The notes beneath the pieces are model-generated. The model saw nothing but the letters and a program-made list of their open reading frames with translations, ran no database searches and was not told the origin of the DNA. A program made the position numbers and the translations under genes. Source: Gammaproteobacteria bacterium (GTDB lineage: Bacteria > Pseudomonadota > Gammaproteobacteria > Chromatiales > Chromatiaceae). Taken from it: a stretch of 64,000 nt of DNA. Position 1 is the stretch's first letter. Each line of letters begins with the position of its first letter. The DNA lies in the NCBI GenBank assembly GCA_018812525.1, contig JAHJDE010000093.1:27288-91287 (forward strand), read 5' to 3'. Below are positions 9,548-57,885 of this stretch, one piece after another.

Positions 9548-9552
9548 TCCCG

Positions 9553-9924: not shown

Positions 9925-9990
9925 CAGGTTTTTCATCCCGGATCGGCATCAGAGTATACTCGACGGACATTCCGACCCTGAGGCATCGTC

Positions 9991-10125: not shown

Positions 10126-10128
10126 CCC

Positions 10129-13793: not shown

Positions 13794-13842
13794 TCCGTTT
13801 CTTGGATAGAATCACCCGTTTCCCACGTCTAGAGAGCCCGGC

Positions 13843-14388
13843 ATGGAGACTTTTCACGGCACTACCATTCTATCCATTCGCCGCAACGGAAAGGTTGCTG
13901 TCGGCGGCGATGGGCAGGTCTCCCTCGGCAATACGGTGATGAAAGGCAACGCCCGCAAGGTTCGCCGTCTTTATAAAGAACAGGTGCTGGCGGGATTTGC
14001 CGGCGCCACCGCCGACGCCTTTACCCTCTTTGAGCGGTTCGAGGGGAAGCTGGAAAAGCATCATGGCAACCTGACCCGTGCCGCTGTTGAACTGGCCAAG
14101 GATTGGCGCACCGACCGGATGCTTCGGCGCCTGGAGGCCATGCTCTGCGTGGCCGATACCAAGGCATCCCTCATCATCTCCGGCACTGGCGACGTGCTCG
14201 AACCGGAGAACGGGCTGATGGCCATCGGCTCTGGTGGTGCCTTCGCCCAGGCCGCCGCTCGCGCCCTGATGGAGAACACGAACCTGGATGCCGTTCAGAT
14301 CGTCGAAAAGGGACTCGCCATTGCCGCCGATATATGTATCTACACCAATCACAATCGCACCATTGAAGAGCTGGATTCCGAAGCCTGA
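13843..14388 (+). CDS. hslV: ATP-dependent protease subunit HslV
   Basis: [37 protein letters not shown]. Confidence 0.95.
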
Positions 14389-15728
14389 TGTCCGATATCA
14401 CCCCACAAGAAATCGTCCTTGAGCTGGACAAGCACATCGTCGGCCAGCAGCAGGCCAAGCGTTCCGTGGCCATCGCCCTCCGCAACCGCCGCCGCCGCAT
14501 GCTGATCGATGAGCCCCTGCGGAGCGAGATCACGCCCAAGAATATCCTCATGATCGGGCCTACCGGTGTCGGCAAAACAGAAATTGCCAGGCGCCTTGCC
14601 CGGCTGGCCAACGCCCCTTTTATCAAGGTCGAGGCGACCAAGTTTACCGAGGTCGGCTATGTGGGCAAGGAGGTCGATTCCATCATCCGAGACCTGGCCG
14701 ACGTTGCCGTAAAGATGTTGCGCGAGCAGGAGCTGGACAAGGTCAAGCATGTAGCGGAGGAGATGGCGGAGGAGCGTGTGCTCGATACCCTATTACCGTC
14801 CCCCGCCCCCCGCAGCTTCGAGGAGGAGGGCCGGTCCGGAGCCGCTCCGGGGACGGCCACACGCGAAAAGTTTCGCGCCAAGCTGCGCAACGGCGAACTG
14901 GACGACAAGGAGATCGAGATCGAGGTCAGCTCCCCCCAGCTTGGGGTCGAGATTATGGCCCCGCCTGGTATGGAGGAAATGACCGGCCAACTGCAAAGCC
15001 TCTTTCAGAACCTGGGCAGCGGGCGCACCCGTCGTCGAAAACTGCGTGTCCGCGATGCCCTCGGCCTGATCGCAGATGAAGAAGCGGCCAAGCGCATCAA
15101 TGAAGAGGACCTGAAGTATCGTGCCCTTGAAAATGTCGAACAAAACGGCATTGTCTTTATCGACGAACTGGACAAGGTCACCAGCCGTTCAAGCCAGGGC
15201 GGCCCCGATGTCTCACGGGAGGGGGTTCAGCGGGATCTGCTGCCGTTGGTGGAGGGCTGCACCGTTTCAACCAAGCATGGCATGGTCAAAACCGACCACA
15301 TCCTCTTCATCGCATCTGGCGCCTTCCATCTCTCCAAACCCTCCGATCTGATCCCCGAGCTTCAGGGTCGTCTGCCGATCCGGGTAGAGCTGAGTGCCCT
15401 CACATCGGAGGACTTTACCCGTATCCTCACTGAACCCGATGCATCTCTGACCGACCAGTACCGAGCGCTGATGGCAACCGAAGGGCTGGATCTAGCGTTC
15501 ACCCAGAATGGTATTCGTCGCATTGCAGAAATCGCCTGGCAGGTCAATGAACGTACCGAGAATATCGGTGCACGGCGCCTGCATACTGTCCTTGAACGGC
15601 TGTTGGAGGAGGTCTCGTTCGCTGCTTCTCAAATGCAGGGAGAGACCATAACCATTGATGCGCACTATGTCGACAGCCACCTCGGAGAGTTGGCCCAGAA
15701 CGAGGATTTGAGCCGTTTCATTCTGTGA
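14388..15728 (+). CDS. hslU: ATP-dependent protease ATPase subunit HslU
   Basis: 446 aa. [40 protein letters not shown]. Confidence 0.95.
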
Positions 15729-15849
15729 ATTTCATCGCCGATCTCTCCGTTCCGAACCCGTGCGGCACATACCCCAGGGTTTGAGCGGAGAGCACAAGGG
15801 GCTTCAAGGGATTAGAATCACCCCTTTCTCCAATTCGAGGTAACAAGTC

Positions 15850-16215
15850 ATGAGCCATCCGATGCCTACCGAACTCAACCTGCATCGACTCTCCAAGGTA
15901 TTGGAAATCGCCTTCGAAGACGGCAGCCGTTTCAGCCTGCCCTGCGAATATCTCCGTGTCCATTCCCCTTCCGCCGAGGTCCAGGGTCACAGCCCGGAGC
16001 AGCGTCAACTCCAAATCGGCAAGGAGGATGTGAACATCGAGCGCATCGAGCCCACCGGCAATTACGGCGTCACCCTTCACTTCGACGACGGCCACAACAC
16101 CGGCATTTACTCCTGGGAGACCCTGTATACTCTGGGTCAAAATCATGACCGGCTGTGGCGGCAATATCTGCATGAATTGGAACAGGCGGGTCACAAACAC
16201 AGGGAGCCGTCTTGA
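15850..16215 (+). CDS. DUF971 (gamma-butyrobetaine hydroxylase-like N-terminal domain) protein
   Basis: 121 aa. L...F.DG..F.L.CEYLRV.SPSAEV...I..IEP.GNYGV.L.FDDGH.TGIY.W..L. Conserved position after hslU. Confidence 0.8.
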   Translation: MSHPMPTELNLHRLSKVLEIAFEDGSRFSLPCEYLRVHSPSAEVQGHSPEQRQLQIGKEDVNIERIEPTGNYGVTLHFDDGHNTGIYSWETLYTLGQNHDRLWRQYLHELEQAGHKHREPS

Positions 16216-16266
16216 TTCCTTGCCCTAATACTGCTCAAGCCCCCTGTGCCCCTAGTCAGGTGATCC

Positions 16267-17019
16267 ATGGCCATAGATCCCAACTCAACCCATTTCGGCT
16301 TTGAACAAGTACCTCTCGGCGAGAAGGCAAACCGTGTCCGCGCCGTATTCGACTCGGTTGCTGACCGCTATGATCTCATGAACGATCTGATGTCTCTCGG
16401 CGTCCATCGTCTATGGAAGCGCATGGCGGTGGATTTGGCTGGGATCAGGGCGGGACACTGCATTCTTGATCTAGCCTCTGGCACGGGTGACCTAGCCGAC
16501 CGCTTCGCAGGCCTGGCAGGCCCCGCAGGACGCGTGGTGATGACTGATATCAACAGCGCCATGCTGCAAAACGGTCGGGATCGCATGCTGAATGCCGGAC
16601 ATGCCGGCAATATCGAATTTGTTCTCGTCAACGCCGAGACCATACCCTTCGCCGACAACAGCTTCGACTCTGTCACCATTGCCTTCGGTCTGCGCAACGT
16701 AACGGACAAACAGAGCGCCCTGGTTGAAATGCATAGGGTATTGCGCCCCGGTGGCCGCGCCCTGGTGCTGGAGTTTTCCCATCCTACCGACAAGACCTTC
16801 AGCAAGATTTATGACCTTTACTCCTTTAAATTGCTCCCCCTCATTGGCAAGGTGATTGCGAAGGATGAGGCCAGCTATCGCTATTTGGCCGAGTCGATTC
16901 GCATGCATCCCGATCAGGAAACACTCCGGGGGATGATGGAGCAGGCTGGCTTCGAGCGTTGCGACTATCACAATTTGAGCCTCGGCATCGTAGCTGTTCA
17001 TCGCGGATTCAAGCTGTGA
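16267..17019 (+). CDS. ubiE: ubiquinone/menaquinone biosynthesis C-methyltransferase UbiE
   Basis: THFGF..V...K...V..VF.SVA.RYDLMNDLMS.G.HR.WK; ILDLASGTGD. Confidence 0.95.
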   Translation: MAIDPNSTHFGFEQVPLGEKANRVRAVFDSVADRYDLMNDLMSLGVHRLWKRMAVDLAGIRAGHCILDLASGTGDLADRFAGLAGPAGRVVMTDINSAMLQNGRDRMLNAGHAGNIEFVLVNAETIPFADNSFDSVTIAFGLRNVTDKQSALVEMHRVLRPGGRALVLEFSHPTDKTFSKIYDLYSFKLLPLIGKVIAKDEASYRYLAESIRMHPDQETLRGMMEQAGFERCDYHNLSLGIVAVHRGFKL

Positions 17020-17028
17020 GGCCCCCGC

Positions 17029-17652
17029 ATGCCACTGATTGACGCGGTATTCGCCCTTAGCGAGGAGGCGATACATCAATATTTGGCCCTTGATCCGCAT
17101 GTCCTGGGACAGCTTCGGCCCCTCCACGGCAAGGCGATTGCTTTCGAGATTGCCGGTTTTGAGCGACGGCTATTTTTTGTCCCCGCACCCAACAGACTCA
17201 TGCTCTTTGCCCGCCATGAGGGCAAACCCGACTGCGTCATCCGGGGATCGCTCCTTGCTTTGGCAAAACTTGGGCATGCCGTGGAGAAGAGTGGGGTGCT
17301 GTTTGGCGGCGATGTACAAATCAGCGGTGACGCTGCAATTGCCCAGCGTTTCGGACAGATTCTTGCCAAAGTGGATATCGATTGGGAAGAGCACCTGAGC
17401 CGTCTCATTGGAGATATCCCAGCCCATCAATTCGCCCGGTCCGGTCGTGAGTTGCGCCACTGGACCAGCCAGACACATCAGGCACTGGAGCAAGACCTTG
17501 GGGAATATCTTCAAGAAGAGGCGCTTCTCAGCCCGCATCCGGAGGAAGTTCGCTTATTCAATGCCGATGTCGACCGAATTCGTGATGATGTGGAGAGGCT
17601 GGAGGTCCGCGTCCATCGTCTTCTGCAAGCGTTAAACGGGGCAGCACCGTGA
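17029..17652 (+). CDS. ubiJ: ubiquinone biosynthesis accessory factor UbiJ (SCP2 domain)
   Basis: 207 aa between ubiE and ubiB, with 4-nt overlap with ubiB. Confidence 0.8.
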
Positions 17653-19295
17653 GGTCGCTGTTTCAGGCCTGGCGCCTGTTGCACATCGCCTGGGTCCTGC
17701 TGCGCAACGGACTCGACGAGGTTCTGCTTGCCACTCACCTCTTCCGCTCCTTGCGTTTTCTGACCGTTTTCGCCCCCTGGTATTGGCTGCCACGCAACAA
17801 AGAGCCCTTCGGTGTCCGCATCCGTCAGTCCTTGGAGCAACTCGGGCCGATTTTCGTTAAATTCGGTCAGGCAGTTTCCACCCGACGCGACCTGCTGCCC
17901 GAGGATATCGCCGATGAGTTGGCCAAGCTTCAAGACCGCGTCCCGCCCTTTCCCGCCAAGGATGCCATTGCCGTCATTGAGCGTGCATTTGGCCGCCCTC
18001 TTCGGGACATTTTCGCCAGCTTTTCCGAGGAGCCTCTGGCTTCTGCATCCATTGCCCAGGTGCATGTGGTTCGTTTGCAGGACAATCGAGAAGCCGTCGT
18101 AAAGGTTCTGCGTCCCGGCGTCGACCGTATCATTCGTCGTGATGTGGACCTTCTGTTCACCCTTGCCCGCTTCGGCGAACGCTTCTGGTCGGAAGGAAAG
18201 CGTCTTCGCCTCATCGAGGTGGTTCAGGAATACGAAAAGACGATTTTTGACGAGCTTGACCTACTGCGAGAGGCGGCCAATGCAGCCCTGGTCAGGCGTA
18301 ATTTTCAGAACAGCAAACAGCTCTATGTCCCCGAGATTTACTGGGACTACTGTCGTACCCCTGTGATGGTTATGGAGCGTGTTTTCGGGACACCGGTTTG
18401 TGATACTGCCGCGCTTCGCGCCCAGAACGTCGATATGAAACTGCTGGGCGAGCGTGGCGTCGAAATCTTTTTCACACAGGTATTCCGAGACAATTTCTTT
18501 CATGCGGACATGCATCCGGGCAATATCTTTGTCTCTCCCGAGGGCCAGTATATCGCCGTCGATTTCGGCATCATCGGTTCACTGACAAAGGATGATCAGC
18601 GTTATCTGGCCGAGAATCTGCTGGCCTTCTTCAATCGGGACTACAAAAGGGTTGCCGAGCTGCATGTGGAATCTGGCTGGGTGCCGAAAGAGACGCGCAT
18701 CGACGAGTTTGAGGCCGCCATTCGCACCGTCAGTGAGCCCATCTTCGAGAAGCCGATCAGTGAGATTTCCTTCGGCCATTTCCTGCTGCGGCTGTTCCAG
18801 ACCGCCCGGCGCTTCAACATGGAAGTTCAGCCTCAACTGGTCTTGCTGCAAAAGACCCTATTGAACGTAGAGGGCCTGGGCCGGCAGCTCTATCCCCAGT
18901 TGGACCTCTGGACCACCGCCAAACCCTTTCTGGAACGATGGGCCGACGAGCAGGTCGGTTTCCGTGCCTTTTTGCGCCGTACCCGGCAGAACCTGCCCTT
19001 GCTCTCGGAAACCTTGCCGGACTTGCCGATCAAGGCCAATAAGCTGCTTGAGGATGCTTTGCAGGGTCGGCTGACGATTCAGTGGCAATCGGAGGAGCTG
19101 CAACGGCTGCACGAATCGCTGCAAATACACAACCGTCGCGTTATCCAGGCCATCGGCGGAGGCTCCATGTTGATAGCCGGAGCCCTGTTACTGACCTTGA
19201 CCCCCGCAATCCTGAGCGTATCTGCTGCCTTCGCTTTTGGTGGGGCGCTGGGGTTCTCGGGTCTGATCCTCCTTGCTAATTCCGGCCGGTCTTGA
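17649..19295 (+). CDS. ubiB: ubiquinone biosynthesis regulatory protein kinase UbiB
   Basis: 548 aa. [24 protein letters not shown] and [10 protein letters not shown] motifs. C-terminal TM segments. Confidence 0.95.
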
Positions 19296-19311
19296 GTCTC
19301 ATCCCCAGGGT

Positions 19312-19863
19312 TCAGGGTCGAACCAAGGGCTCCTCAACCTGCTTGCGCTTCTCCGGGCCGACAAGCCTTTCGATCAGTTCGAGGGCGAAATCCATCGCTG
19401 TGCCTGGGCCTCGGGAGGTAATCACCTTGCCGTCACTGACGACCGGAAGCGGCATCAGGTCAACGCGCGGAAGATCCATGCTGTCGAGGACCCCCGGATA
19501 GGCCGTGGCCCGCTTTCCATCCAGCACCCCGGCATTGGCCAGGACCTTGGGGGCCGCACATATGGCAGCGACAAAGCCCCCGCTGGCCGCCAGCCTCTTG
19601 ATCAAGGCGTGGATACGCGGATCATTGTCGAGATGGTCCGAACCCGGAAGGCCACCCGGCAGCACCAGCATGTCAAAGGATTCATTCGCTATCGCATCAA
19701 GCGTTGTGTCGGGTAGGAGCACAACGCCTCGGCTGGCCCTGACTGGCCTATCATCCAAACCGGCCGTGACCACATCGATCTCGGCTCGCCGCAGCAGGTC
19801 GATGATCGTCACTGCCTCCATCTCTTCGCAACCTTGGGCCAAGGGAACTAGAACGCGGGTCAT
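19312..19863 (-). CDS. DJ-1/PfpI family protein (YajL-like)
   Basis: Start at internal ATG (MTRVLVPLAQGCEEMEAVTIIDLLRRA). AAICAAP nucleophile-elbow motif. Confidence 0.85.
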   Translation of the reverse strand: MTRVLVPLAQGCEEMEAVTIIDLLRRAEIDVVTAGLDDRPVRASRGVVLLPDTTLDAIANESFDMLVLPGGLPGSDHLDNDPRIHALIKRLAASGGFVAAICAAPKVLANAGVLDGKRATAYPGVLDSMDLPRVDLMPLPVVSDGKVITSRGPGTAMDFALELIERLVGPEKRKQVEEPLVRP

Positions 19864-19901
19864 GGTAATGTCTCCTAACCTGTTGAATAAACATTTGTTT
19901 A

Positions 19902-20049
19902 GAGGTTCTTGCAAAACTGCAAGAACCTCTTGCGGTTCAGGGATGAACCGCCACTTTCAATGGCCTAAGCCATTGAAAATGATGAAAACGAAAAATCGCA
20001 TTTTTGGCTTTCGCCTTGCAAAATGGCCAGGATGGCCATTTTGCTCCTC
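19902..20049 (+). mobile_element. MITE-like five-hairpin repeat, copy 2
   Basis: Same orientation as copy 1, with about 6 substitutions and a 4-nt deletion near the right end. Flanked by direct TTTA at 19898-19901 and 20050-20053. Confidence 0.8.
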
Positions 20050-39577: not shown

Positions 39578-40729
39578 ATGGAGCTGCAACTGACCCTGGT
39601 GCGCCAGAAATACACCCCCTTCGGCGGGGCCGAGCGCTTCGTCAGCCGCGCCCTGGAGGCGCTGGCCGCCAAGGGGGTGGATATCCGCGTCGTCGCCCGG
39701 AGCTGGAGCGGCGAAAGCCGTTTCACCCTGGAACGCTGCGCCCCCTTCCATATCGGCCGCCTCTGGCGCGATGCCAGCTTCGGCCGGGCCGCGTGCCGGC
39801 GGCTTTCGCGGCAGACAAGTGGCTTGGTCCAATCCCACGAGCGCATCCCCTGCTGCGACATCTACCGGGCCGGCGACGGGGTCCACCGCGAATGGCTGCG
39901 GCAACGCGCCCGCCTGCGGGGCGACTGGTCGGACAGGCTGACCCGGCTCAGCCCCTATCACCGCTTCCTTCTCAGGGCCGAGGAGAGGCTCTTTGCCAGC
40001 CCCCGGCTGAAGGCGGTGATCTGCAACTCCCGCATGGTCCGCGCCGAGATCCAGGAGTGGTTCGGGCTGGCGGAGGAGCGGTTGCCGGTCATCCACAACG
40101 GGGTCGATACCGGCCGATACCATCCGAGGCTGAAGGAGGAGTACCGGGTGCCACTGCGCCGGCAATGGGGAATCGCCGAGGACGCCCCCCTCTTCCTCTT
40201 CGTCGGCTCGGGCTTCGAGCGCAAGGGCCTAGACGCGGCCCTGCGGGCCATGACCTGCCTGGATGAACCCCTCAGTCGGTTGCTGGTGGTAGGCAAGGAC
40301 AGCCGGACCCGCCATTACCGAAATTTCAGTATCCGCCTCGGATTGGAAGGGCGCGTCATCTTCGCCGGACCCCAAAAGGACGTTCGCCCTTTCTATGGCG
40401 CCGCCGATGCCTTTCTGCTGCCAACCCTTTACGACCCCTTCCCCAACGTGGTGCTGGAGGCCATGGCCTCGGGCCTGCCGGTGATCACCAGTTACAAAAG
40501 CGGTTCCCGCGACATCATCAACGAAGGCATCAACGGCTATTGTTGCGATGCGCTCAATGTCGATGCCCTGGCGGGTCGCATGACCGCCCTGCTCGATCCC
40601 GGCACCCGTGACCGCCTGGGCCGGGAGGCACGGAAGACCGTGGAACCCCTGACCCTCGACCGCATGGCCGATGAATATCTGGCGCTCTATCACAGGCTGT
40701 TGGGCCTGAACGATCAGACCTCCTTGTAG
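39578..40729 (+). CDS. glycosyltransferase family 4, WaaG (LPS core glucosyltransferase I)-like
   Basis: N-terminal KYTPFGGAERF resembles the WaaG KYFPFGGLQRDF. The C-terminal GT-B motif has PT.YDPFPNVVLEAMASGLPVI. The last 6 codons lie inside the duplicated thiC-end repeat. Confidence 0.8.
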   Translation: MELQLTLVRQKYTPFGGAERFVSRALEALAAKGVDIRVVARSWSGESRFTLERCAPFHIGRLWRDASFGRAACRRLSRQTSGLVQSHERIPCCDIYRAGDGVHREWLRQRARLRGDWSDRLTRLSPYHRFLLRAEERLFASPRLKAVICNSRMVRAEIQEWFGLAEERLPVIHNGVDTGRYHPRLKEEYRVPLRRQWGIAEDAPLFLFVGSGFERKGLDAALRAMTCLDEPLSRLLVVGKDSRTRHYRNFSIRLGLEGRVIFAGPQKDVRPFYGAADAFLLPTLYDPFPNVVLEAMASGLPVITSYKSGSRDIINEGINGYCCDALNVDALAGRMTALLDPGTRDRLGREARKTVEPLTLDRMADEYLALYHRLLGLNDQTSL

Positions 40730-40811
40730 ATCTCGGCCCCCTGGCGCCGGAACTCCTCGGACTTCTGCCGCATGCCCTCTTCCACCGATTTGGCGTAATC
40801 CCTCACGTCCT
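40711..40811 (-). pseudogene. orphan duplicate of the thiC 3' end (last 31 codons plus stop), repeat copy A
   Basis: 99/101 identical to 43789-43889. The minus strand still reads [31 protein letters not shown]-stop. No upstream thiC body. Confidence 0.9.
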
Positions 40812-41029
40812 AAATCCGTATTTCTGGTTGAAGTTTGTCTCGGACGCTGATGTCATGGCGCCGTAACCTCATGATTCTTAGATGAATACCCCGCCACAAG
40901 AGGGGCTGTGGTTACATTTTAGATGGTTCATGGATCGTGAACAAACGTACAATGTAAAGTGCCACATATGAAAGTATTGTATTGTGCGCTTAGTTCCTTC
41001 TTTTCAAATCTCATACAGAGAATAATCGC

Positions 41030-42010
41030 ATGAAACTAATAAACAGCGCGCTAATTCGTGTATCCAGAAAAATCCACTCCAATGGAGTATTGGGATACCC
41101 AGAGAAGATACTATTTGAACCAACTAACGCCTGCAACCTAAAATGTCCATTATGCCCAACAGGAATAAACGCTTTAGGCCGTCCAACGGGTCAAATGCGC
41201 ATCGATCAGTTCAGTCCCATCATTGACGAAATACAATCACGCACAAAGCATGTTGAATTTGCTGGTTATGGCGAGCCGTTTATTGCCAAGGATATTTTCA
41301 GGATGATCCGTTACGCTGCCGAAAAAGGCTTGCATACGCATGTGTACTCAAATCTGCTCATGTTAAATACAGAGGAGAAAATGGACGAATTGATTTCCTC
41401 CGGCTTGAATAGGCTGACCGTTTCTATAGATGGAGCAACACAAGAAACGTACGAAAAATACCGTATTGGAGGAAACATCGACGTATTATTTGACGTTCTT
41501 GGCAAAATTATTGAGAGGAAGAAAGTCCATAACATAAATAGTATGGAGATTGTAGGACAAATGCTCGTTACCAAGCAAAATGAGCACGAAGTACATCTGA
41601 TGAAGAAACGAACTCAGGCCTTGGGCCTTGATCGAATAATCACAAAAACAGCTAATTTAGCGTTAACAAAACCGATGGAAAATTCGTCTATTGATCCCCT
41701 TCTCACTAGCAACTTTTATCCTACACGCAATGAGTTTCAGCGTTATCGAGCCAACTCGGCAATTCTCCGGAATGGTTGCTCATGGCTATATAAAGAATGT
41801 GTAATTTTTTGGAACGGAGATGTTACCACGTGCTGCCATGATCCGTCTGGCATTAACATACTCGGCAATGTCTTCTCCTCCGGGTCGGTGTGGTCGGTAT
41901 GGAATGGCGATAACTATAAGAAACTCAGAAAACAGGTCAATCACGACATCAGTTCCGCCCACCCATTATGTTCGCAGTGTCCAGATAGATCACAAAATAT
42001 CAATTCCTGA
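41030..42010 (+). CDS. radical SAM/SPASM domain protein
   Basis: 326 aa. FEPTNACNLKCPLCPTG (CxxxCxxC), YGEPF, and a C-terminal Cys cluster CSWLYKEC...WNGDVTTCCHDPSG...CSQCPD, consistent with a SPASM/twitch auxiliary cluster domain. AT-rich codon usage compared with neighbours. Confidence 0.85.
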   Translation: MKLINSALIRVSRKIHSNGVLGYPEKILFEPTNACNLKCPLCPTGINALGRPTGQMRIDQFSPIIDEIQSRTKHVEFAGYGEPFIAKDIFRMIRYAAEKGLHTHVYSNLLMLNTEEKMDELISSGLNRLTVSIDGATQETYEKYRIGGNIDVLFDVLGKIIERKKVHNINSMEIVGQMLVTKQNEHEVHLMKKRTQALGLDRIITKTANLALTKPMENSSIDPLLTSNFYPTRNEFQRYRANSAILRNGCSWLYKECVIFWNGDVTTCCHDPSGINILGNVFSSGSVWSVWNGDNYKKLRKQVNHDISSAHPLCSQCPDRSQNINS

Positions 42011-42038
42011 ATTGAACACAACTCATCAGGCAGCATTA

Positions 42039-42836
42039 ATGAACAAGCAACATAGGACTGTGATTACCCCCCTACTGCTAAACCCAAGATCAGGATGGTT
42101 GGGCATATGGCCTGGCTGGAGGGCAATTTTGGATCCAGAAAACGGCCGCATCCGCCGTTTTCTGGAGGAACAGGCGGCCCAACTAGACTCCGGCGCCCGG
42201 ATGCTTGATGCCAGCGCCGGCAATCGGCCCTACCAACCGATCTTCGGCAAGCAGCTCTATGAATCCTGTGACATGCCCAACGGCTTCTATCACTGCAAGC
42301 ACGATTTCGAGTGCTTCCTTGATGAGATACTCCGGCCCGATGGGTATTACGACGCAGTAGTGATGACCCAGGTACTGGAACACGTACCCAATCCGGAACA
42401 AGTGCTTCGGGAACTGGCGCGGGTGACCCGGCCGAGGGGGAAGCTGCTGTTGTCGGTCCCCCTGAATGGGCCGCTGCACGGTGAGCCCTGGCACTTCTAC
42501 CAATACACCCACCACGGCCTCGGCCACCTCGCCCAGGCGAGCGGATGGCGCATGACCGAGGGGGAGAAGATCGGCGGCGCCTTCTGGCTGCTGGGCAAAC
42601 GTCTTGCCTACCTGCCGCGCGGTCTCATGAAGGCTGTCGACCCGTTCCGCGCCCGCAAGCGAGGCCTGTCACCGGCAGTTTGCCTCGGATTGAGCCTGGC
42701 CTTCCTTCCATTCTGGCTACTGGCGATCCCACTGCTCGGTTTCCTGGTCCGACCCGCCTGCTACTGGCTAGATCGGCTGGATCTGGATAAATCCTTTACC
42801 TCAGGCTACACCGCTGTATTCGAACGGGTCGCCTAA
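42039..42836 (+). CDS. class I SAM-dependent methyltransferase with hydrophobic C-terminus
   Basis: Internal ATG (MNKQHRTV...). MLDASAGNRPY; VVMTQVLEHVPNPEQVLRELARVTRPRGKLLLSVP. C-terminal LGLSLAFLPFWLLAIPLLGFL. Confidence 0.8.
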   Translation: MNKQHRTVITPLLLNPRSGWLGIWPGWRAILDPENGRIRRFLEEQAAQLDSGARMLDASAGNRPYQPIFGKQLYESCDMPNGFYHCKHDFECFLDEILRPDGYYDAVVMTQVLEHVPNPEQVLRELARVTRPRGKLLLSVPLNGPLHGEPWHFYQYTHHGLGHLAQASGWRMTEGEKIGGAFWLLGKRLAYLPRGLMKAVDPFRARKRGLSPAVCLGLSLAFLPFWLLAIPLLGFLVRPACYWLDRLDLDKSFTSGYTAVFERVA

Positions 42837-43465
42837 TCTGGCTTGCGTAGCAGCACCCAAACTGTCTGGCTGTAGCGGTTCAGGTACTTCTCGCCGGGAT
42901 AGCGCAACTTGCGTAGGAAACGTTTCAAGGCCGGGCGTTGCTGTTCGGTGGCGAAGATTTCCACCACTTCCAGACCTAGACGGCTGGCATTCTCCAGAAG
43001 GAAGTCACGCGCCTGAGTGTGGCTGAAGAACCAGCGGTGGCGGTCCTGGGGCTTTTCAACCGGCAGTCCGTAGTGGGCGAAATGGCCGCGCCCTCGATCA
43101 ATGGGCTGGCGCGCATCGCGCCAGCAGTTGGGCAGGGAGACAATGACGTGGCGGCGGCTGACGCGGACCAGCTCATGGAACATGTGGTGCAGGTTTTCCA
43201 GATGCTCCAGCACCTCGATGCACAACACGCAATCTTGGGAACCATCGGGAAAGGGCAGCGCGTCCACGGAATCCAGGTTCAACACCCGGTCCGGATTGCC
43301 GGCGATGTCGACGCCGCAATACTCGCAATCCTGAAGGATTTCCCGCAGCGGAGCTTCATAGCAACCAACGTCCAGCACCTTGCCCCGTAATACCGGCGCA
43401 AACCGTCGGGCGACAAATTCGCTACGGGCCCGACGTGATGAAAAGCTGGCTTCCTCAAGTTTCAT
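42833..43465 (-). CDS. class I SAM-dependent methyltransferase
   Basis: 210 aa. VLDVGCYEAPL; D.VLCIEVLEHLENLHHMFHELVRVSRRHVIVSLPN. 4-nt convergent overlap with the previous methyltransferase. Confidence 0.8.
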   Translation of the reverse strand: MKLEEASFSSRRARSEFVARRFAPVLRGKVLDVGCYEAPLREILQDCEYCGVDIAGNPDRVLNLDSVDALPFPDGSQDCVLCIEVLEHLENLHHMFHELVRVSRRHVIVSLPNCWRDARQPIDRGRGHFAHYGLPVEKPQDRHRWFFSHTQARDFLLENASRLGLEVVEIFATEQQRPALKRFLRKLRYPGEKYLNRYSQTVWVLLRKPD

Positions 43466-43788
43466 AAAGCAGAATTCCTATGTCAGTTCAATGATTAACG
43501 GGGCGCACGTCACTATTGGACAGGCTATTGGTTCCATTTATCGATCATTAGTCAATCCCAGCTTCTTTACGCAAGAAATATACGAAAGGCGTTGGACGTG
43601 GCTATGGCCGGCATGGCAATACAATATCGTTTGAGGCCGCTACCAGCCGAGCACAAGCACACAACATCATGAATTTTCTGCCACCGACCAAATGCACTCG
43701 GCCTTGAAGCGTTTTCCGCTCAAACTGTGGCTATTCTGGCGGCAAATATTTGAGGCTGCTACAGCCAAACGTTTCACAACCCCCCCAG

Positions 43789-45681
<1,893 letters not shown>

Positions 45682-45758
45682 TTAGACCCGAATCATGGAT
45701 CTCGATGAAAAGGCGCCGGGAAGCCATCCGGTTTATCCGGATGCGAGAGGAGGTTGAG

Positions 45759-45848
45759 CCAGCTTCCCTTCGCCGGCATAACCCGGATCAGGTTCAAAGA
45801 GTCAATCTCAGCCCAAGGCCATTAAGAAGGCCAGGGCGCCCCCAGCTG
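45759..45848 (-). promoter_or_regulatory. TPP (THI-box) riboswitch upstream of thiC
   Basis: Minus strand: CAGCTGGGGGCGCCCTGGCC...TTGGGCTGAGATTGACTCTTTGAACCTGATCCGGGTTATGCCGGCGAAGGGAAGCTG. It contains the conserved GGGG.GCC, CUGAGA and ACC.UUUGAACCUGAUCCGG.UAAUGCCGGCG.AGGGA elements and a P1 helix (CAGCT/AGCTG). Confidence 0.9.
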
Positions 45849-45901
45849 ATGGAATCACGTTATAAGATGGGCAACCTGATTGCAACAATACCTCAGCGAT
45901 C

Positions 45902-46060
45902 GGGTGCGTTTGAAAGTGTTGGTCGTGCCCCGGTCACCGTTCGCCCTGAGCTTGTCGAAGGGCAGCAGTGGCAAGGAAAAGCGGTTCGACAGGGCTCTCC
46001 TGAGCGAAGACGAAGGGCTCACCGCGAACGGGGAAACTCCCAACACTTTCAAACGCACCC
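45902..46060. mobile_element. MITE-like element with perfect 21-bp terminal inverted repeats
   Basis: GGGTGCGTTTGAAAGTGTTGG (45902-45922) is the exact reverse complement of 46040-46060. Flanked by CAGCGATC at 45894-45901 and 46062-46069. The interior carries the widespread CCTGAGC..GTCGAAGGGC type motif, which translates as VRPELVEG / SLSKG in spurious ORFs. Confidence 0.75.
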
Positions 46061-46172
46061 CCAGCGATCATGGAGATTTCCCCTCGGCGCCCCGGTACCC
46101 AAGGCTTGTCATCAAACCACAAAGTTCGTAGTCTCTCCACCATCGGCCCGGCACTTATCGAGAACCCTGAAC

Positions 46173-46832
46173 ATGCACGAAAACAGCGAAAATCTGGCAC
46201 GTTTCAACATGATCCATCAGCAGATCCGGCCTTGGAACGTCAGCGACAGCCGGGTATTGGATATCCTCGGGGAGATACCGCGCGAGGCATTCGTTCCCGC
46301 GGCCTATCGTGGGGTGGCCTTCGCCGACATAGAGATTCCCTTGCCCAGCGGGCATTCCATGATGGCGCCGAAACTGGTTGCAAGGCTACTGCAAGGGCTC
46401 GCCATCCGCCCCAAGGACAATATCCTGGAGATCGGCACCGGAAGCGGCTATCTCACCGCCTGCCTGGCCAGGCTGGGCGGCTATGTGACCAGCATCGACC
46501 TGGATGCGGATTCCATCGAAGCAGCAAGCAAACGCCTGATCGAGCTGGGTATCCGTAATGTCTCCCTCAAGGTCAGCGATGCCATGGAGTCCATTCCCGG
46601 CGGCTCCTACGACGTGATCCTGGTCACCGGTTCCCTTCCCCAGCGCATCGATCGTTTCGAAACGGCATTAAGCATCGGGGGGAGGCTGTTTGCCGTGATC
46701 GGGCAATCGCCCCTCATGGAGGCCTGTTTCATCACCCGGCTCGGCGAGAGGGATTGGAGCTGCGAGCCCCGTTTCGAGACGGATCTTGCGCCCCTGGAAC
46801 ACCGCCTGCCGGCCCAGTCCTTCGTTTTCTGA
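46173..46832 (+). CDS. protein-L-isoaspartate O-methyltransferase family protein
   Basis: Internal ATG of the 388-aa ORF. R..M...Q.R.W.V.D..VL......PRE.FVP......A.AD..IP...G..M..P...A..LQ.L......ILEIGTGSGY.TA.LA. The upstream part of the ORF runs through the riboswitch and MITE and is not coding. Confidence 0.8.
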   Translation: MHENSENLARFNMIHQQIRPWNVSDSRVLDILGEIPREAFVPAAYRGVAFADIEIPLPSGHSMMAPKLVARLLQGLAIRPKDNILEIGTGSGYLTACLARLGGYVTSIDLDADSIEAASKRLIELGIRNVSLKVSDAMESIPGGSYDVILVTGSLPQRIDRFETALSIGGRLFAVIGQSPLMEACFITRLGERDWSCEPRFETDLAPLEHRLPAQSFVF

Positions 46833-54013: not shown

Positions 54014-54350
54014 AAAGCAATACCTCTAAAAATTTATCGCAAAAAAACCAAAGCCAAGGCGGACTCAAGTTGTAACTGTACCAGGGCGCGAAAGACAATG
54101 GCGTAAAGGGGCAGCTGGTAGGCTACCCACTTTCACTTTCCGGTCAGGGGATAAAAGTCCCGGTTCATCACGGAAGCGGTGTGATGGTTGCCGGCAGGAC
54201 GATACATCCGCCAGGCTCGGCGTTCAAATCAAGAACGCCACCATAGTGGCCGTCTCAGCGAATCAGTTTGACGATACCGGCCGATGCCTAGACAATTCCA
54301 TCGAAACCAGGGATACCTGGATCATCTGGCCCGCAACAAGAGGAATTTCA

Positions 54351-55631
54351 ATGGAAGACAGGACTGCTGTGGCATCAGAGGTCAGGACCGCCCACAGAAT
54401 TCTCGCTGGAATGTCCCCTGCAGCCCTGCTGATCGCCGCTCTTGCACTCTCGATGCCTTTTTCACGCGCAGCCATCAGCTTGCTGACGGCCATGATTCTC
54501 ATTCTCTGGATTGCAAAGTCCAAACCCTGGAAAGGCTGTTCCTTATCAAATACGCCGAAGCTGATTCTCGCGATGGCTGCTTACGTTGCATTTGGTTTGA
54601 TTTCGCTGCTCTGGTCGGAGGACATTCCTTGGGGACTGGACATACTCGGCATGTATCTCTACTGGTTAGTGATCCCCGCCATTGCATTCTTGCTCAGGAA
54701 AGAAGATATCAATCCTGTAATTTCCGCCTTCCTCATTGGAATGGCAATCAGCCAGATACTGTTCTGGGGCAGGCATTTTGGACTCTGGGAGCTGAAACAT
54801 GGCCTAACACCCTTCATGAACACCATTGAATATGGTGTCTACCTTTGTGTAACCATTCTTGTGCTTATCACTCGAGCCATGAGCAGCAAGTATAGGCTGC
54901 GTACAAGATTTTTATATGGTGCTTATCTCACTATTACAACTGTAGCGCTTTTTACCTCTCCAGGACTGACGGGTCAAGTCGCCTTCGTCGCCGCGGTACC
55001 CTTTGCCTTCATTCTTTACACTAAGGCTACCTCAAAGAAGCCAGTATTTTCTTCCTTTGCGGTCGTGCTCCTGGTCGCCAGCGTTTTTGCGGCAACCTGG
55101 AAACTCAGCCCGGTCTTTCAGACGAATATTGACGAGTTTGAACAGGTAAGATCTGTACTTGCCGGCGAAAACATTTCAGAATCCTTAACGCAAAGCAGTG
55201 TTGGTCAACGCACGGCCATGATTATCATAGGCTGCGAAATCTTTGTAAAGCAACCGCTGTTAGGCACCGGCTTCGGCGATACAATGCATGATTTTCAGCG
55301 CATCCTCAAGGAACGCCATCAGGAGATGGCGTCTCTTGATGGCTTCAGCAATACCCATTTGCATACCATGTATATCGAGGTAGCGACCAGAATAGGAATC
55401 GTCGGTCTCATCCTGTTTGGCATCGTTTTCTATTACTATTTTACCTTGGCTGTTAGTGACAAAGAAACAAACAAGTTGCGCACCCTGTTCGCGATTGCCT
55501 TTTTGGCCGCATTTATCGGTGAGCCCCTATGGCATAAGCAATTTTCCATGGCGCTTTTTTCCCTGTTTACGGCCCTCTTCGTTCTTGCATCTAAACAAGA
55601 CGAGAATGCCGAGATGGCTTCACCAGACTGA
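54351..55631 (+). CDS. O-antigen ligase family membrane protein (WaaL-like)
   Basis: Polytopic. Wzy_C-type motif NTHLHTMYIEVATRIGIVGL. AT-rich. Start at internal ATG MEDRT is uncertain. Confidence 0.7.
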   Translation: MEDRTAVASEVRTAHRILAGMSPAALLIAALALSMPFSRAAISLLTAMILILWIAKSKPWKGCSLSNTPKLILAMAAYVAFGLISLLWSEDIPWGLDILGMYLYWLVIPAIAFLLRKEDINPVISAFLIGMAISQILFWGRHFGLWELKHGLTPFMNTIEYGVYLCVTILVLITRAMSSKYRLRTRFLYGAYLTITTVALFTSPGLTGQVAFVAAVPFAFILYTKATSKKPVFSSFAVVLLVASVFAATWKLSPVFQTNIDEFEQVRSVLAGENISESLTQSSVGQRTAMIIIGCEIFVKQPLLGTGFGDTMHDFQRILKERHQEMASLDGFSNTHLHTMYIEVATRIGIVGLILFGIVFYYYFTLAVSDKETNKLRTLFAIAFLAAFIGEPLWHKQFSMALFSLFTALFVLASKQDENAEMASPD

Positions 55632-55651
55632 CTATTTTGTCTTATTTACCT

Positions 55652-57397
55652 ATGCAATCCATTCCTCCTGACAACAAGGGGCTTTATCTGCGGCTGCTCG
55701 ATCTCGTGCGCCCCTATTCAAGATTTTTTGCCCTAGCCGTATTCTTTCTTATTATCTTCTCTTCCACGCAAGCCGCCATCCCCGCCTTGCTTCAGCCACT
55801 ATTGGATGGGACATTTGTTCATCGGGACGAAAGGTTCTTGTTATGGGCACCTCTCGGGATCATCATTCTCTCGCTGGTGCGAGGGACATCCAATTTTATA
55901 AGCCAGTATCTATTTTCATGGATATCAACCAAAGTTGTGCATGATATACGCGATCAGATATTTAATCGTTATCTTACGCTTCCCACGCACTTTTACGATA
56001 CCCATACTGCGGGTAGCTTGATTTCAAAAATCACTTATGATGCTACAAGGGTCTCGGATTCTGGCACTACTGTCCTCATATCTTTGATCAAGGATTCATT
56101 TACCGCAGCAGGACTTATTGCGTATATTGTCTATCTCAACTGGAAGCTCAGCTTTCTGATTTTTATTCTTGCTCTCATCGTCGCCTACCTGATTAAGGTG
56201 CTGGGAAAACGTCTGCGTCAATTGCACAGAAAGCTGCAAAAGGACTACAGCGATATGACCCATGTATTGGAAGAGGCAATCAAGGGGAATAAGGTAATCA
56301 AGATATTTGGGGGGCAAGCAAAGGAAAATAAACGCTTCACGCAATCGTCAAACTGGGTGCGGCGTATGCAGATGAAGACCCAGGTTGCCTCCTCAATTGG
56401 CTCACCCATCATTGAGATTATTGGCGCAATTATCATGGCGTTTATCATTTATATCAGCGCCAAGCCAGGAGATGATGCCCTCACCGTTGGTGGTTTCATG
56501 GCGTTTCTAACCGCCCTGGTGCTTTTGATCTCTCCGATCAAGAATCTCACCAAGATCAATGACCAAATCCAAAAGGGTATTGCAGCCGCAGAAAGCCTCT
56601 TTTCCATCATAGATGAACAAGCCGAACCGGATCTTGGCACTATTTCATCCGGCAAACTTACCGGCAAAATTCAGTTCCATAATGTCACCTTCTACTACCC
56701 TGGTACTCAGCAAAGGATCTTTGATAACCTAAGCCTTGAAATACCAGCCGGCTCATCCCTTGCACTTGTAGGTGCATCCGGCAGCGGTAAAAGTACCATC
56801 GCCAATCTTATTCCTCGGTTCTATACCCTCACCTCCGGTTTTATTACAGTAGATGGCATTGACATAACCTCTATTCATCTTGCTGAATATCGGGACAACA
56901 TTTCCTATGTTAGCCAGGACATAACATTATTTAATGACAGCATAGCCAACAATATTGCCTATGGATTGCCAGAGCGCCCAGAGGATTCCGCAATTATTGC
57001 TGCTGCGCGAGCGGCTTATGCCATTGACTTTATTGAACAGTTACCCAGTGGCTTTGAAACCCTAATTGGGGACAATGGGTTGCGTTTATCAGGAGGTCAG
57101 CGCCAACGGATTGCCATCGCGCGCGCTCTACTGAAGGATGCCCCAATTCTTATCCTTGATGAGGCCACATCTGCGCTCGATACAGAATCTGAGCGTTTTG
57201 TACAGGCTGCGCTTGAGAATTTACGTAGGAACCGTACAACCATTATCATTGCCCATAGGCTTTCCACAGTAGAGAGCGCCGATCGAATCCTCGTTCTTGA
57301 CAGGGGAAAGATCATAGAGTCTGGGTCACATGCGGATTTATTGCACCAAAATGGCTGCTACGCTTCCCTGTATAAGACCCAAGATGTTCAGGGCTAA
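55652..57397 (+). CDS. msbA: lipid A export ATP-binding/permease protein MsbA
   Basis: Six-TM domain plus an NBD with GASGSGKST, LSGGQRQRIAIARALL and ILILDEATSALD. ATG at 55652 (ORF-track TTG at 55637 also possible). AT-rich. Confidence 0.9.
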   Translation: MQSIPPDNKGLYLRLLDLVRPYSRFFALAVFFLIIFSSTQAAIPALLQPLLDGTFVHRDERFLLWAPLGIIILSLVRGTSNFISQYLFSWISTKVVHDIRDQIFNRYLTLPTHFYDTHTAGSLISKITYDATRVSDSGTTVLISLIKDSFTAAGLIAYIVYLNWKLSFLIFILALIVAYLIKVLGKRLRQLHRKLQKDYSDMTHVLEEAIKGNKVIKIFGGQAKENKRFTQSSNWVRRMQMKTQVASSIGSPIIEIIGAIIMAFIIYISAKPGDDALTVGGFMAFLTALVLLISPIKNLTKINDQIQKGIAAAESLFSIIDEQAEPDLGTISSGKLTGKIQFHNVTFYYPGTQQRIFDNLSLEIPAGSSLALVGASGSGKSTIANLIPRFYTLTSGFITVDGIDITSIHLAEYRDNISYVSQDITLFNDSIANNIAYGLPERPEDSAIIAAARAAYAIDFIEQLPSGFETLIGDNGLRLSGGQRQRIAIARALLKDAPILILDEATSALDTESERFVQAALENLRRNRTTIIIAHRLSTVESADRILVLDRGKIIESGSHADLLHQNGCYASLYKTQDVQG

Positions 57398-57885
57398 TTT
57401 CCGGTATTCCGCTGCCATCCATTCCTGTTCCCCGTGACTGTGGCTACGGGTACATGGACATAGGGCTCAGGATGAATACCACCAGACGTTATCCATCACC
57501 AAAACGGCCATAGTAAAACAATGCGTTAACGCGCCGCGAGTTACGACACTGGCGAACAAGTGAGGTGAAGTGTACACAGGGTATGTCATAGGCAGGCTGG
57601 TGTCGCTTCGAAAAGCCGTTCCGGATTGGTCAGCGTTGTAACCTGCGTGAAACCTAAACGAGCCAGGCGTTATGGTAAGCCTGGTTAGCGCCGGCGGAGT
57701 TCTCAAGCTACGGCATGTGACAAGAGATGCGTCTTGAACGCGGGAGACCCCTTGGGTTCCTTGTCGGAACCGGCGGGAGGGACGAGGTATACAGGTATTG
57801 AGACACAGATAGGAAACCTGGTGACTGTCCCATTTTCACGAACAGCTTGAACCCGAGCCCCCCGACCCTTATCTTCTGCACTCAT

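Follow-up and report, generated by a model that had tools for sequence, protein, structure and literature searches.

The window, a 64,000-nt stretch of DNA from a gammaproteobacterium of the Chromatiaceae (contig JAHJDE010000093.1, positions 27,288 to 91,287), carries between waaG and thiC a gene for a radical SAM (rSAM) enzyme and two methyltransferase genes (MT1 and MT2). We read these genes as a horizontally acquired module of mosaic structure whose three products modify a sugar in the core or outer core of the lipopolysaccharide (LPS), or in a closely related glycan of the envelope, and put the probability of this reading at about 0.6. The substrate would be a core sugar and the three proteins would act on the same molecule; for the rSAM enzyme we favor, by analogy, epimerization through an invariant extra cysteine over dehydrogenation. 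Because the rSAM family has no characterized member, both substrate and reaction rest on analogy.

Results

Gene content and setting of the cassette

All three genes were confirmed within 41030-43465 in the ORF list of the window, beside a WaaG-type glycosyltransferase gene. The rSAM gene (41030..42010, + strand) encodes a 326-aa protein that was assigned to the twitch-type radical SAM enzymes from its Pfam matches, cysteine conservation, profile match to BtrN and an AF2/Foldseek comparison. MT1 (42039..42836, + strand) encodes a class I SAM methyltransferase of 265 aa with a predicted C-terminal membrane anchor (Methyltransf_23, 3.8e-15), and MT2 (42833..43465, − strand) a soluble class I SAM methyltransferase of 210 aa (Methyltransf_23, 4.3e-11; Methyltransf_11); the two genes are convergent and share 4 nt where they overlap. 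The resident gene to the left of the insertion encodes a WaaG-type GT4 glycosyltransferase of the LPS core (39578..40729, + strand; Pfam Glycos_transf_1, 3e-32, and Glyco_transf_4), whose relatives carry the JGI name UDP-glucose:(heptosyl)LPS alpha-1,3-glucosyltransferase, and the resident gene to the right is thiC (43792..45657, − strand), recognized from its ORF translation. A TPP riboswitch lies upstream of thiC, at 45748-45853. WaaA, HldE, Ugd, a WaaL-like protein and MsbA are encoded within 17 kb of the cassette, and their linkage to the WaaG-type GT4 marks an LPS core biosynthesis locus in the window. The same linkage is seen in relatives, where the loci L002, L008, L094 and L095 carry GT9, GT4, WaaL or MsbA. 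Promoter and terminator scans of the locus performed no better than chance. A first-pass annotation had described an rSAM gene followed by two methyltransferase genes, the second convergent, and our coordinates and Pfam matches agree; the LPS-core glycosyltransferase that it placed beside the cassette is the gene at 39578-40729, which is WaaG-type both by Pfam and by its JGI-named relatives.

The MT1 start common to the orthologs is at 42039, and the listed ORF opens earlier, at 41820. A hydrophobic tail had been noted on this protein; it maps to approximately residues 209-241 (Kyte-Doolittle 19-residue maximum, 2.2) and is kept in one ortholog. Orthologs of MT1 were found in the LPS-core cluster L094 (64% identity) and near an rSAM homolog in L005 (50%). 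Those of MT2 occur in L094 (80%) and in the GT9/WaaL cluster L095 (70%), both LPS-core clusters, as well as near an rSAM homolog in L002 (54%) and, in L088, as part of a TylF fusion adjoining the rSAM gene (53%). In L094 the two genes form a convergent pair (64%/80%) within an MsbA-WaaL-GT4 cluster that has no rSAM gene.

A repeat-flanked insertion with a nested high-GC core

The cassette is part of a 2977-nt insert between 101-nt direct repeats that duplicate the waaG/thiC junction. Repeat copy 1 (40711..40811) combines the true 3′ end of waaG with the final ~98 nt of thiC as a dead duplicate, and its reverse strand translates to the ThiC C-terminus; it is identical to copy 2 at 99 of 101 positions. 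In copy 2 (43789..43889), thiC has its true 3′ end and the final 19 nt of waaG are the dead duplicate. Excision of the insert together with one repeat (3078 nt) restores a 16-nt waaG/thiC overlap, as in L090, and the empty site is present in two relatives, L090 and L096, in which waaG and thiC adjoin. One syntenic relative is a TARA ocean contig, and the WaaG relatives suggest an uncultured, gammaproteobacterium-like lineage. The ORF list contains no integrase or transposase ORF in the insert, and no tRNA was found within 30-55 kb.

The left end of the insert, 5′ of the rSAM gene (40812..41029), has a GC content of 0.417; it is unique within the window and also present in the independent contig L001. 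Along the locus, whose GC content is about 65%, the profile falls to 0.41-0.44 over the rSAM gene, against 0.62-0.70 in the flanks. By gene, GC content is 0.423 for rSAM (GC3 0.44), 0.62 for MT1, 0.59 for MT2 and 0.66 for waaG (GC3 0.84), so that a low-GC frame surrounds a high-GC MT1-MT2 pair and the cassette is internally mosaic. The AT-rich rSAM gene and the mosaic character had both been pointed out in the first-pass annotation, and the repeats with their nested high-GC core strengthen that description. The GC3 of the rSAM gene, 0.44 against about 0.8 in the host, was counted against our best explanation, and expression of the gene is thus putative. The right part of the insert contains the C-terminal ~40 codons of a third methyltransferase gene (43504..43619, + strand). 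Its counterpart is a 205-aa methyltransferase encoded after the rSAM homolog in L005, to which the remnant aligns at residues 154-192, with 75% identity over 28 aa and a further 13 aa.

The C-terminal domain of the rSAM protein is predicted to be of the twitch type

The rSAM protein bears the cluster motif C35-x3-C39-x2-C42 (CNLKCPLC), as had been reported. It matches Pfam Radical_SAM (PF04055; 6.1e-17, 62.7 bits against a gathering cut-off of 29.5) and, over residues 250-318, Pfam SPASM (PF13186; 1.1e-10, 42.1 bits against 21.5). The protein belongs to the radical SAM superfamily, with a CX3CX2C motif that is kept in at least 262 of 266 relatives; its start codon agrees in position with those of the nearest homologs, and the intact ORF retains all invariant residues of the family (266 members sampled). 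Five C-terminal cysteines (C250, C268, C269, C314 and C317) are conserved, each in 258-263 of the 266 relatives: the four predicted auxiliary-ligand columns are each kept in 259-263, and C269, which adjoins the predicted ligand C268, in 258. Position 257 varies, with Ala, Ser, Thr or Pro in the relatives, and the C-x7-C spacing given earlier is in fact C250-x6-C257. Because C257 is variable, the conserved set consists of the five cysteines named above, a twitch pattern and not a seven-cysteine SPASM pattern. A search for the latter (CX2CX5CX3C and a final Cys, forming AuxII) recovered only the CX2C of C314 and C317. The protein stops 9 residues past C317, and 251 of 267 aligned sequences (the 266 relatives and the window protein) have no Cys within the 40 residues that follow the CxxC. 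From these sequence features we assign the C-terminal domain to the twitch type, with one predicted auxiliary cluster, and not to full SPASM; the earlier label "SPASM/twitch type" was right in outline and resolves to twitch, the AuxII motif of a full SPASM domain being missing. Cys269 could be an alternative cluster ligand instead of a free thiol.

None of the NCBIfam models reached its cut-off on the rSAM protein (best, TIGR04317, 108 bits against 380); the matches fell far short and were limited to the radical SAM core. A role as a prokaryotic viperin (pVip) in anti-phage defense was considered and rejected, since the PADLOC pVip match covers only residues 31-144, the generic radical SAM core; the NCBIfam viperin model scored 40.7 bits against a cut-off of 180. 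PADLOC gave no match on either methyltransferase, and PHROGs returned only generic radical SAM and methyltransferase families for the cassette.

Sugar-modifying enzymes are the closest solved matches

Among solved structures, the family profile matched BtrN best (9.4e-23) and BlsE second (8e-17). BtrN is the 2-deoxy-scyllo-inosamine dehydrogenase of the butirosin pathway (PDB 4M7T), and its radical SAM core precedes a twitch domain that binds a single auxiliary [4Fe-4S] cluster, an architecture also predicted here. The four family Cys columns fall on BtrN residues C169, C187, C232 and C235, which are its auxiliary-cluster ligands, with the same spacing (x17, x44, x2). The C-terminal region proposed earlier as SPASM/twitch passes the gathering cut-off of the Pfam SPASM model and shows the four-cysteine twitch pattern of BtrN, with four conserved cysteines at BtrN ligand positions. 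Foldseek comparison of the AF2 model (pLDDT 92.5) ranked BtrN first (4e-13), followed by BlsE and DesII, ahead of the peptide maturases; the gap in E-value between the sugar enzymes and the maturases SuiB and CteB is under two orders of magnitude.

The likeness to BtrN extends to a carbohydrate-type substrate on the BtrN side, but identity is ~16% over the fold alignment, BtrN is shorter (about 250 aa), it has a Phe at the place of the second, invariant Cys in the CC pair of the rSAM family, and it belongs to an aminoglycoside cluster rather than an LPS/glycan cluster. We rejected the rSAM protein as a BtrN ortholog (DOIA dehydrogenase) because of the 16% identity and of the LPS/glycan genes that neighbor it in the contexts read; the alcohol-to-ketone reaction of BtrN can be carried over to the rSAM family by analogy at most. 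BlsE (cytosylglucuronate decarboxylase) and DesII (TDP-sugar deaminase/dehydrogenase) are likewise sugar-modifying radical SAM enzymes, with a likeness that lies mostly in the radical SAM core (profile positions 41-223), and the NCBIfam BlsE model scored 47.5 bits against a cut-off of 400. AlbA, PqqE, anSME, MftC and SuiB resemble the rSAM family in the radical SAM core and in the first half of their C-terminal Fe-S domain, whereas the CX2CX5CX3C...C motif of AuxII, the RRE, the precursor gene and the protease/exporter context of such SPASM maturases are absent here.

A hydrogen-donating role for the fifth conserved cysteine would have precedents in enzymes with a single auxiliary cluster. In EpeE, C223 is a free Cys that donates hydrogen beside the twitch cluster (PMC13012085), as is C249 in NeoN (PMC10991966); for HygY, a paper title cited in this literature (PMC10991966/PMC13012085) points the same way. 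As far as these sources go, NeoN, HygY and EpeE/YydG each have, besides a single auxiliary cluster, a conserved Cys that is not a ligand and gives hydrogen back to the substrate radical, NeoN and HygY acting on aminoglycoside sugars and EpeE/YydG on a peptide. The rSAM family has its invariant fifth Cys directly beside a predicted ligand, and EpeE is among the fold matches; the likeness to NeoN and HygY is drawn from their published mechanism. EpeE differs in having a peptide substrate and a dedicated precursor gene, which the cassette lacks.

Relatives are encoded among glycan genes

The closest rSAM homologs (45-55% identity), at L002, L004, L005, L088 and L008, lie in LPS-core-like or glycan clusters. 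The neighborhood in L002 holds GT4, GT2, GT9, five methyltransferases and a DegT aminotransferase; those in L004 and L005, glycosyltransferases, methyltransferases and a hexapeptide acetyltransferase; that in L088, GT4, methyltransferases and the TylF-MT2 fusion adjoining rSAM; and that in L008, GT9, a WaaG-like GT4, an MsbA-like protein, Ugd, DegT and four methyltransferases. On a Solidesulfovibrio plasmid, a homolog belongs to a DegT-rSAM-MT-WbqC cluster. At L089 a sulfotransferase is the sole glycan gene near a close homolog and MT1/MT2 orthologs are absent, a setting that was counted against our best explanation; most distant family loci also carry rSAM without MT1 or MT2.

In a census of 73 loci (259 neighbors, 133 at ±1 and 126 at ±2), GT2-type glycosyltransferases were the top families and GT2 made up 33 of the 133 immediately flanking proteins. 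Natural fusions join rSAM to a class I methyltransferase (P0380, P0416) or GT2 to rSAM (P0387, P0467, P0489). In the distant part of the family, a GT2/GT21-like glycosyltransferase is a tight partner and LPG_synthase_TM and PMT_2 membrane proteins are nearby. Judged from these sequences, the conserved partners of the rSAM family appear to be glycosyltransferases and class I methyltransferases. At E≤1e-30, a library clustered at 50% identity contains 9,820 clusters of the family, from bacteria and DPANN archaea. The survey of homolog neighborhoods yielded glycan/LPS clusters and GT2 partners.

The family includes rSAM genes in four places on the 36-kb plasmid pBHWA1 of Brachyspira hyodysenteriae (27-29% identity over 91% of the query). 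They sit among rfbC, rfbF, glycosyltransferase and rhamnan-synthesis genes in a LOS/rhamnose cluster, and differ from the window gene in being distant paralogs in a tandem array on a plasmid; strain comparison correlated them with virulence (PMC4267127). In the literature we found this correlation study and reviews, and no characterized radical SAM enzyme in O-antigen, LPS or polysaccharide clusters.

Discussion

The first-pass annotation had left the role of the cassette between LPS or glycan decoration and peptide modification. The former is now well supported by the clusters around homologs, the occurrence of MT1-MT2 in LPS-core clusters, the fusions with GT2 and methyltransferase and the matches to BtrN, BlsE and DesII; the latter is unsupported. 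In the chemistry that we propose, the CX3CX2C cluster would cleave SAM, and the 5′-deoxyadenosyl radical would take hydrogen from a C-H of the sugar. The invariant Cys269, presumably a non-ligand next to the auxiliary cluster, could then donate hydrogen to the substrate radical from the opposite face and give the epimer, as in NeoN, HygY and EpeE; alternatively, the auxiliary cluster could oxidize this radical, which would yield a keto-sugar in the manner of BtrN. MT1 at the membrane and soluble MT2 would O-methylate the same glycan. The three proteins need not act together, because MT1-MT2 occurs without rSAM, and rSAM occurs without MT1/MT2 at L089 and at distant loci.

A minimal RiPP cassette, in which a small peptide, whether its gene lies nearby or elsewhere, is cross-linked or epimerized by the rSAM enzyme and decorated by the methyltransferases, is extremely unlikely. 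The Pfam SPASM match, the partial NCBIfam similarity to the peptide maturases StsB, WgkB and PqqE and the presence of SuiB and CteB among the fold matches point toward it, but the NCBIfam matches, limited to the radical SAM core, all fall far short of threshold, and the protein has no motif for a second auxiliary cluster. The 47-aa Trp-rich ORF at 43501-43634 was considered as a candidate precursor; we rejected it because it matches the C-terminus of the L005 methyltransferase after the rSAM homolog and is itself the methyltransferase remnant. Of the ORFs of 20 aa or longer in the two intergenic regions, none qualified as a precursor peptide gene next to rSAM, this remnant being the sole sizeable small ORF. 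The cluster motif begins at residue 35, which leaves no room for an N-terminal RRE domain, and no Pfam match precedes residue 30, although an RRE is likewise missing from some radical SAM enzymes of RiPP pathways. Neither at the window locus nor among the 259 neighbors of the 73 loci were peptidases or exporters enriched, and the search for protease, exporter and immunity genes gave nothing in favor of a peptide. The original remark that no precursor, transporter or protease gene accompanies the cassette is consistent with both the small-ORF list and the census.

Within the same glycan/LPS context, the rSAM protein may instead be a BtrN-like dehydrogenase that acts on an activated or lipid-linked sugar and turns a hydroxyl of that sugar into a ketone; the ketone would feed transamination, C-methylation or reduction, not epimerization. 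We consider this rather unlikely: BtrN is the best match by sequence and fold, with all four auxiliary ligands aligned, and DegT aminotransferases, the family of the BtrN partner BtrS, occur near the homologs in L002, L008 and the Solidesulfovibrio plasmid, but the cassette has neither an aminotransferase nor a reductase, and BtrN has Phe at the position of the invariant second Cys. Improbable is a role on a glycolipid rather than LPS, with remodeling of a lipid-linked sugar head group after GT2 action, for example by ring contraction or carbocycle formation. The GT2/GT21-like partner, sometimes fused, and the LPG_synthase_TM and PMT_2 proteins near distant family members fit this scheme, which recalls the glycosyltransferase-then-radical-SAM logic proposed for calditol synthase Cds and hopanoid HpnJ (PMC13459092), enzymes compared here on their published description; however, the close clade and the window lie in clusters of the LPS-core type (heptosyltransferases, WaaG, MsbA, WaaL), and the cassette has no GT2. 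It is also quite improbable that rSAM is a recent passenger, silent or non-functional in this host, with only the proteobacterial MT1-MT2 pair at work: against its codon and GC mismatch (GC3 0.44 versus about 0.8), the existence of the MT pair as a unit without rSAM elsewhere and the decay of the neighboring methyltransferase to a remnant stand an intact ORF with all family-invariant residues (266 members) and a start that agrees with the closest homologs. Finally, the integration would be an assembly artefact if the 3078-nt unit were really a small circle, or came from another strain, and had been joined through the shared ~90-nt sequence. L001, an independent contig from short reads, corresponds precisely to 40777-43825 and has both of its ends 30 nt within the core that the two repeat copies share, as a k=31 graph loop predicts; yet the protein is also encoded on two contigs of 50-200 kb, the repeat copies differ at two positions and are therefore distinguishable, assemblers with k >89 or long reads resolve such a repeat, and the insert has no replication gene, which together make this very unlikely.

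For the preferred reading, a module that tailors an LPS-core sugar or related glycan, a wider interpretation is possible, if tentative: the family may be a new class of glycan-editing radical SAM enzymes that invert or oxidize an unactivated sugar carbon after transfer by a partner glycosyltransferase, together with a methyltransferase, here giving a rare LPS-core stereoisomer. This could be one that nucleotide-sugar pathways do not supply. To our knowledge, twitch radical SAM enzymes that act on sugars have been described almost exclusively from pathways for aminoglycoside and nucleoside antibiotics, and the locus points to a very large, unstudied twitch branch tied to cell-envelope glycans. 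It also offers a clean, datable case of LPS-core diversification, with a small insertion, a duplicated target and a nested mosaic. Epimerization or oxidation at the level of the glycan, if true, would open a new way of making rare sugars for LPS, for capsules and for the surface glycans of archaea, and would be relevant to phage receptors, serotype variation and virulence, with which the Brachyspira plasmid genes are already correlated.

Structure and acquisition of the cassette

The three genes called by the first-pass annotation, which lie between waaG and thiC, were confirmed by ORF listing and domain scans. The radical SAM (rSAM) gene (41030–42010, + strand) encodes a 326-aa protein with the motif C35-x3-C39-x2-C42 and is followed by two genes for class I SAM methyltransferases (Methyltransf_23/11), MT1 (42039–42836, + strand, 265 aa) and MT2 (42833–43465, − strand, 210 aa), which are convergent and overlap by 4 nt. 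The hydrophobic tail noticed in MT1 corresponds to residues ~209–241 (Kyte-Doolittle 19-residue maximum, 2.2) and was also found in an orthologue. The cassette had been placed beside an LPS-core glycosyltransferase, and the upstream GT4 is indeed WaaG-type; since WaaA, HldE, Ugd, a WaaL-like ligase and MsbA are also encoded in the window, this is an LPS-core region. The thiC gene is preceded by a TPP riboswitch (RF00059, 67.5 bits) at 45748–45853 (− strand), and ~45930–46060 holds an intergenic palindromic repeat-like element whose translations give the recurrent motifs 'RPELVEGQ / FALSLSKG / LRQAQGER', familiar from spurious ORFs across many environmental genomes. This element inflates the ORF at 45666–46832, upstream of a PCMT-like gene.

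The cassette is exactly flanked by a 101-nt direct repeat (40711–40811 and 43789–43889; 99/101 identical) that holds the 3′ ends of both waaG and thiC, which overlap each other and are thereby duplicated. Removal of the 2977-nt insert (40812–43788) together with one repeat copy restores a 16-nt convergent waaG/thiC overlap. The identical overlap is present in the relative L090 (WaaG 62% identical), and a TARA contig (WaaG 67% identical) carries waaG, thiC and a PCMT gene with the cassette absent. An assembly graph loop could mimic such an arrangement, and L001, an independent k-mer contig, runs precisely from 40777 to 43825, 30 nt within each repeat core, as a loop would; the gene is, however, also found on two contigs of 50–200 kb, and we consider an assembly artefact very improbable.

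GC content is 0.41–0.44 across the rSAM gene versus 0.62–0.70 in the flanks, and its GC3 is 0.44 versus 0.84 for waaG. The rSAM gene had been described as AT-rich relative to the methyltransferases and the cassette as mosaic, and both descriptions held: the left end (0.417), the rSAM gene (0.423) and the right end (0.483) enclose an MT1–MT2 core of ~0.60, the low-GC ends being related to a cluster like that of L005, a locus with an rSAM homologue, and the core to proteobacterial LPS clusters. Judged from its sequence, the cassette is an insertion with a nested mosaic structure. ORF listing revealed neither an integrase nor a transposase in the insert, and there is no tRNA nearby; a single crossover of circular DNA bearing the waaG/thiC junction sequence could produce such a structure.

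The rSAM protein has a twitch-type Cys pattern

The 326-aa protein had been assigned to the SPASM/twitch type. It passed both the Radical_SAM and SPASM Pfam gathering scores, and the twitch assignment stood, but the motif of a second cluster was lacking. Eight Cys were invariant across an alignment of 40 sequences (C35, C39, C42, C250, C268, C269, C314 and C317), and each is kept in 258–263 of the 266 relatives that were aligned to the HMM of the family; the C257 position in these relatives is Ala, Ser, Thr or Pro. Because 251 of 267 aligned sequences (the window protein and its 266 relatives) contain no Cys in the 40 residues past the CxxC, the family lacks the CX2CX5CX3C...C motif by which full SPASM domains bind their second cluster. 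The Fe-S domain, as read from this alignment, is therefore twitch and not full SPASM. The best solved protein for the family profile was BtrN, a twitch dehydrogenase (9.4e-23). Counted along the profile alignment, four family Cys fall on BtrN residues 169, 187, 232 and 235, reported as its four auxiliary ligands by Goldman et al. 2013. The AF2 model (pLDDT 92.5, pTM 0.91) matched best the folds of BtrN, BlsE and DesII, all of which act on sugars or cyclitols, with the peptide maturases SuiB and CteB close behind. No NCBIfam subfamily model came near its cut-off. Full SPASM, RiPP-maturase and viperin membership were rejected, the protein failing all three tests.

Relatives of the cassette genes in glycan clusters

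The closest homologue of the rSAM protein is merely 55% identical. At one genome per species we found 591 relatives, all ≤46% identical and mainly from uncultured Woesearchaeota, Cloacimonadota, Latescibacterota, Calditrichota, Gemmatimonadota and Omnitrophota; an exhaustive HMM search (E≤1e-30) extended the family to 9,820 50%-identity clusters. Within the close clade (45–55% identity), the rSAM gene of L002 (Nitrospirae) is accompanied by DegT, Bac_transf, a dehydratase, five methyltransferases, GT4, GT2, GT4 and GT9. L005–7 carry GT4, methyltransferases and an acetyltransferase; L088 carries GT4 and methyltransferases, with a TylF-methyltransferase fusion immediately upstream of rSAM; and L008 (Verrucomicrobiia) carries a WaaG-like GT4, a heptosyltransferase, four methyltransferases, MsbA-like, Ugd and DegT genes. 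The exception is L089, where a sulfotransferase alone is nearby. L004 encodes three rSAM paralogues, six methyltransferases, GT2, a hexapeptide acetyltransferase and GT4; this single metagenomic glycan cluster (L004 6806–15141) suggests a heavily modified, methylated polysaccharide.

Among distant relatives, GT2/GT21-type glycosyltransferases made up 33 of 133 immediate flanking proteins, dropping to 8 of 126 at the second position out. In the top 150 representatives, natural fusions attach the rSAM domain to class I methyltransferases (P0380, P0416) or to GT2 (P0387, P0467 and P0489, the last with a cupin too). Further fusions, in P0364, P0378, P0469 and P0489, comprise tandem radical SAM proteins (674, 1143 aa), an AAA_17 kinase-like domain plus rSAM, and GT2+rSAM+cupin. 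Among cultured organisms, a Solidesulfovibrio plasmid has the order DegT-rSAM-methyltransferase-WbqC, and tblastn located four stretches with homology to the window enzyme on Brachyspira hyodysenteriae plasmid pBHWA1, within an rfb/rhamnan/glycosyltransferase block. The pBHWA1 region 7270–20028 (L092) holds seven radical SAM/SPASM genes, of which five form a tandem series (10855–16105), amid rfbC, rfbF, rhamnan-synthesis and glycosyltransferase genes. The plasmid block correlates with virulence and is partly missing in low-virulence strains (PMC4267127).

MT2 has far closer relatives than the rSAM protein, at ≤80% identity in Proteobacteria. The cluster on contig L094 runs from MsbA through WaaL, GT4 and an unknown gene to an MT2-like gene (80%), with an MT1-like gene (64%) convergent on it; the 4-nt overlap is kept, the DNA is 68% identical across 42093–43465, and the cluster has no radical SAM gene. 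L095 has an MT2-like gene (70%) with a GT4 gene on one side and a heptosyltransferase gene on the other. The occurrence of the pair without rSAM, and of MT2 in a core cluster, indicates that MT1–MT2 is an LPS-core module of its own. MT1 or MT2 orthologues (50–54% identity) also lie near close rSAM homologues; the association is recurrent, not obligate. A second low-GC stretch in the window (~54300–57400; 0.45–0.48 versus ~0.62 around) covers the WaaL-like ligase and an MsbA 48% identical to that of L094, and is possibly another acquired LPS segment.

Discussion

The role of the cassette had been left between LPS or glycan decoration and peptide modification. The annotation had reported no known precursor, transporter or protease gene alongside, and a listing of small ORFs in both intergenic regions gave a single sizeable one, Trp-rich and 47 aa long (43501–43634). 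It was rejected as a RiPP precursor: over 28 residues it is 75% identical to the C-terminal end of a 205-aa methyltransferase encoded after the rSAM homologue of L005, and it marks a third-methyltransferase pseudogene reduced to its C-terminal ~40 codons (43504–43619, + strand). With its cluster motif beginning at residue 35, the rSAM protein has too short an N-terminal stretch to hold an RRE domain, and neither peptidases nor exporters were enriched among the 133 immediate and 126 next-out neighbours of distant relatives. Peptide modification thus found no support, and the LPS-core and glycan contexts of relatives, with the fusions to GT2 and methyltransferases, make glycan or LPS tailoring the strongly favoured role.

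Our literature search turned up neither a characterised member of the family nor a description of any radical SAM step in the assembly of the LPS core. We likened the enzyme to BtrN, NeoN and HygY, twitch enzymes that modify sugars, though it is an orthologue of none. Beside a predicted cluster ligand the family has an invariant extra Cys, C269, where the dehydrogenase BtrN has Phe. This Cys parallels the H-donor Cys of twitch epimerases, namely C223 of EpeE (PMC13012085), C249 of NeoN (PMC10991966) and, going by a title cited in PMC10991966, that of HygY. On both grounds epimerisation is favoured over dehydrogenation, although by this analogy it can be proposed only tentatively as the specific reaction. 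The enzyme would remove an H atom from a sugar C-H of the LPS core or of a lipid- or nucleotide-linked precursor, the radical would then be resolved, after which MT1, at the membrane, and MT2 would add O-methyl groups. The architecture, genomic context, fusions and acquisition described here are observed features of the family and the cassette; with a probability of roughly 0.6, we propose that the cassette is an acquired module that tailors an LPS-core sugar or a related envelope glycan.
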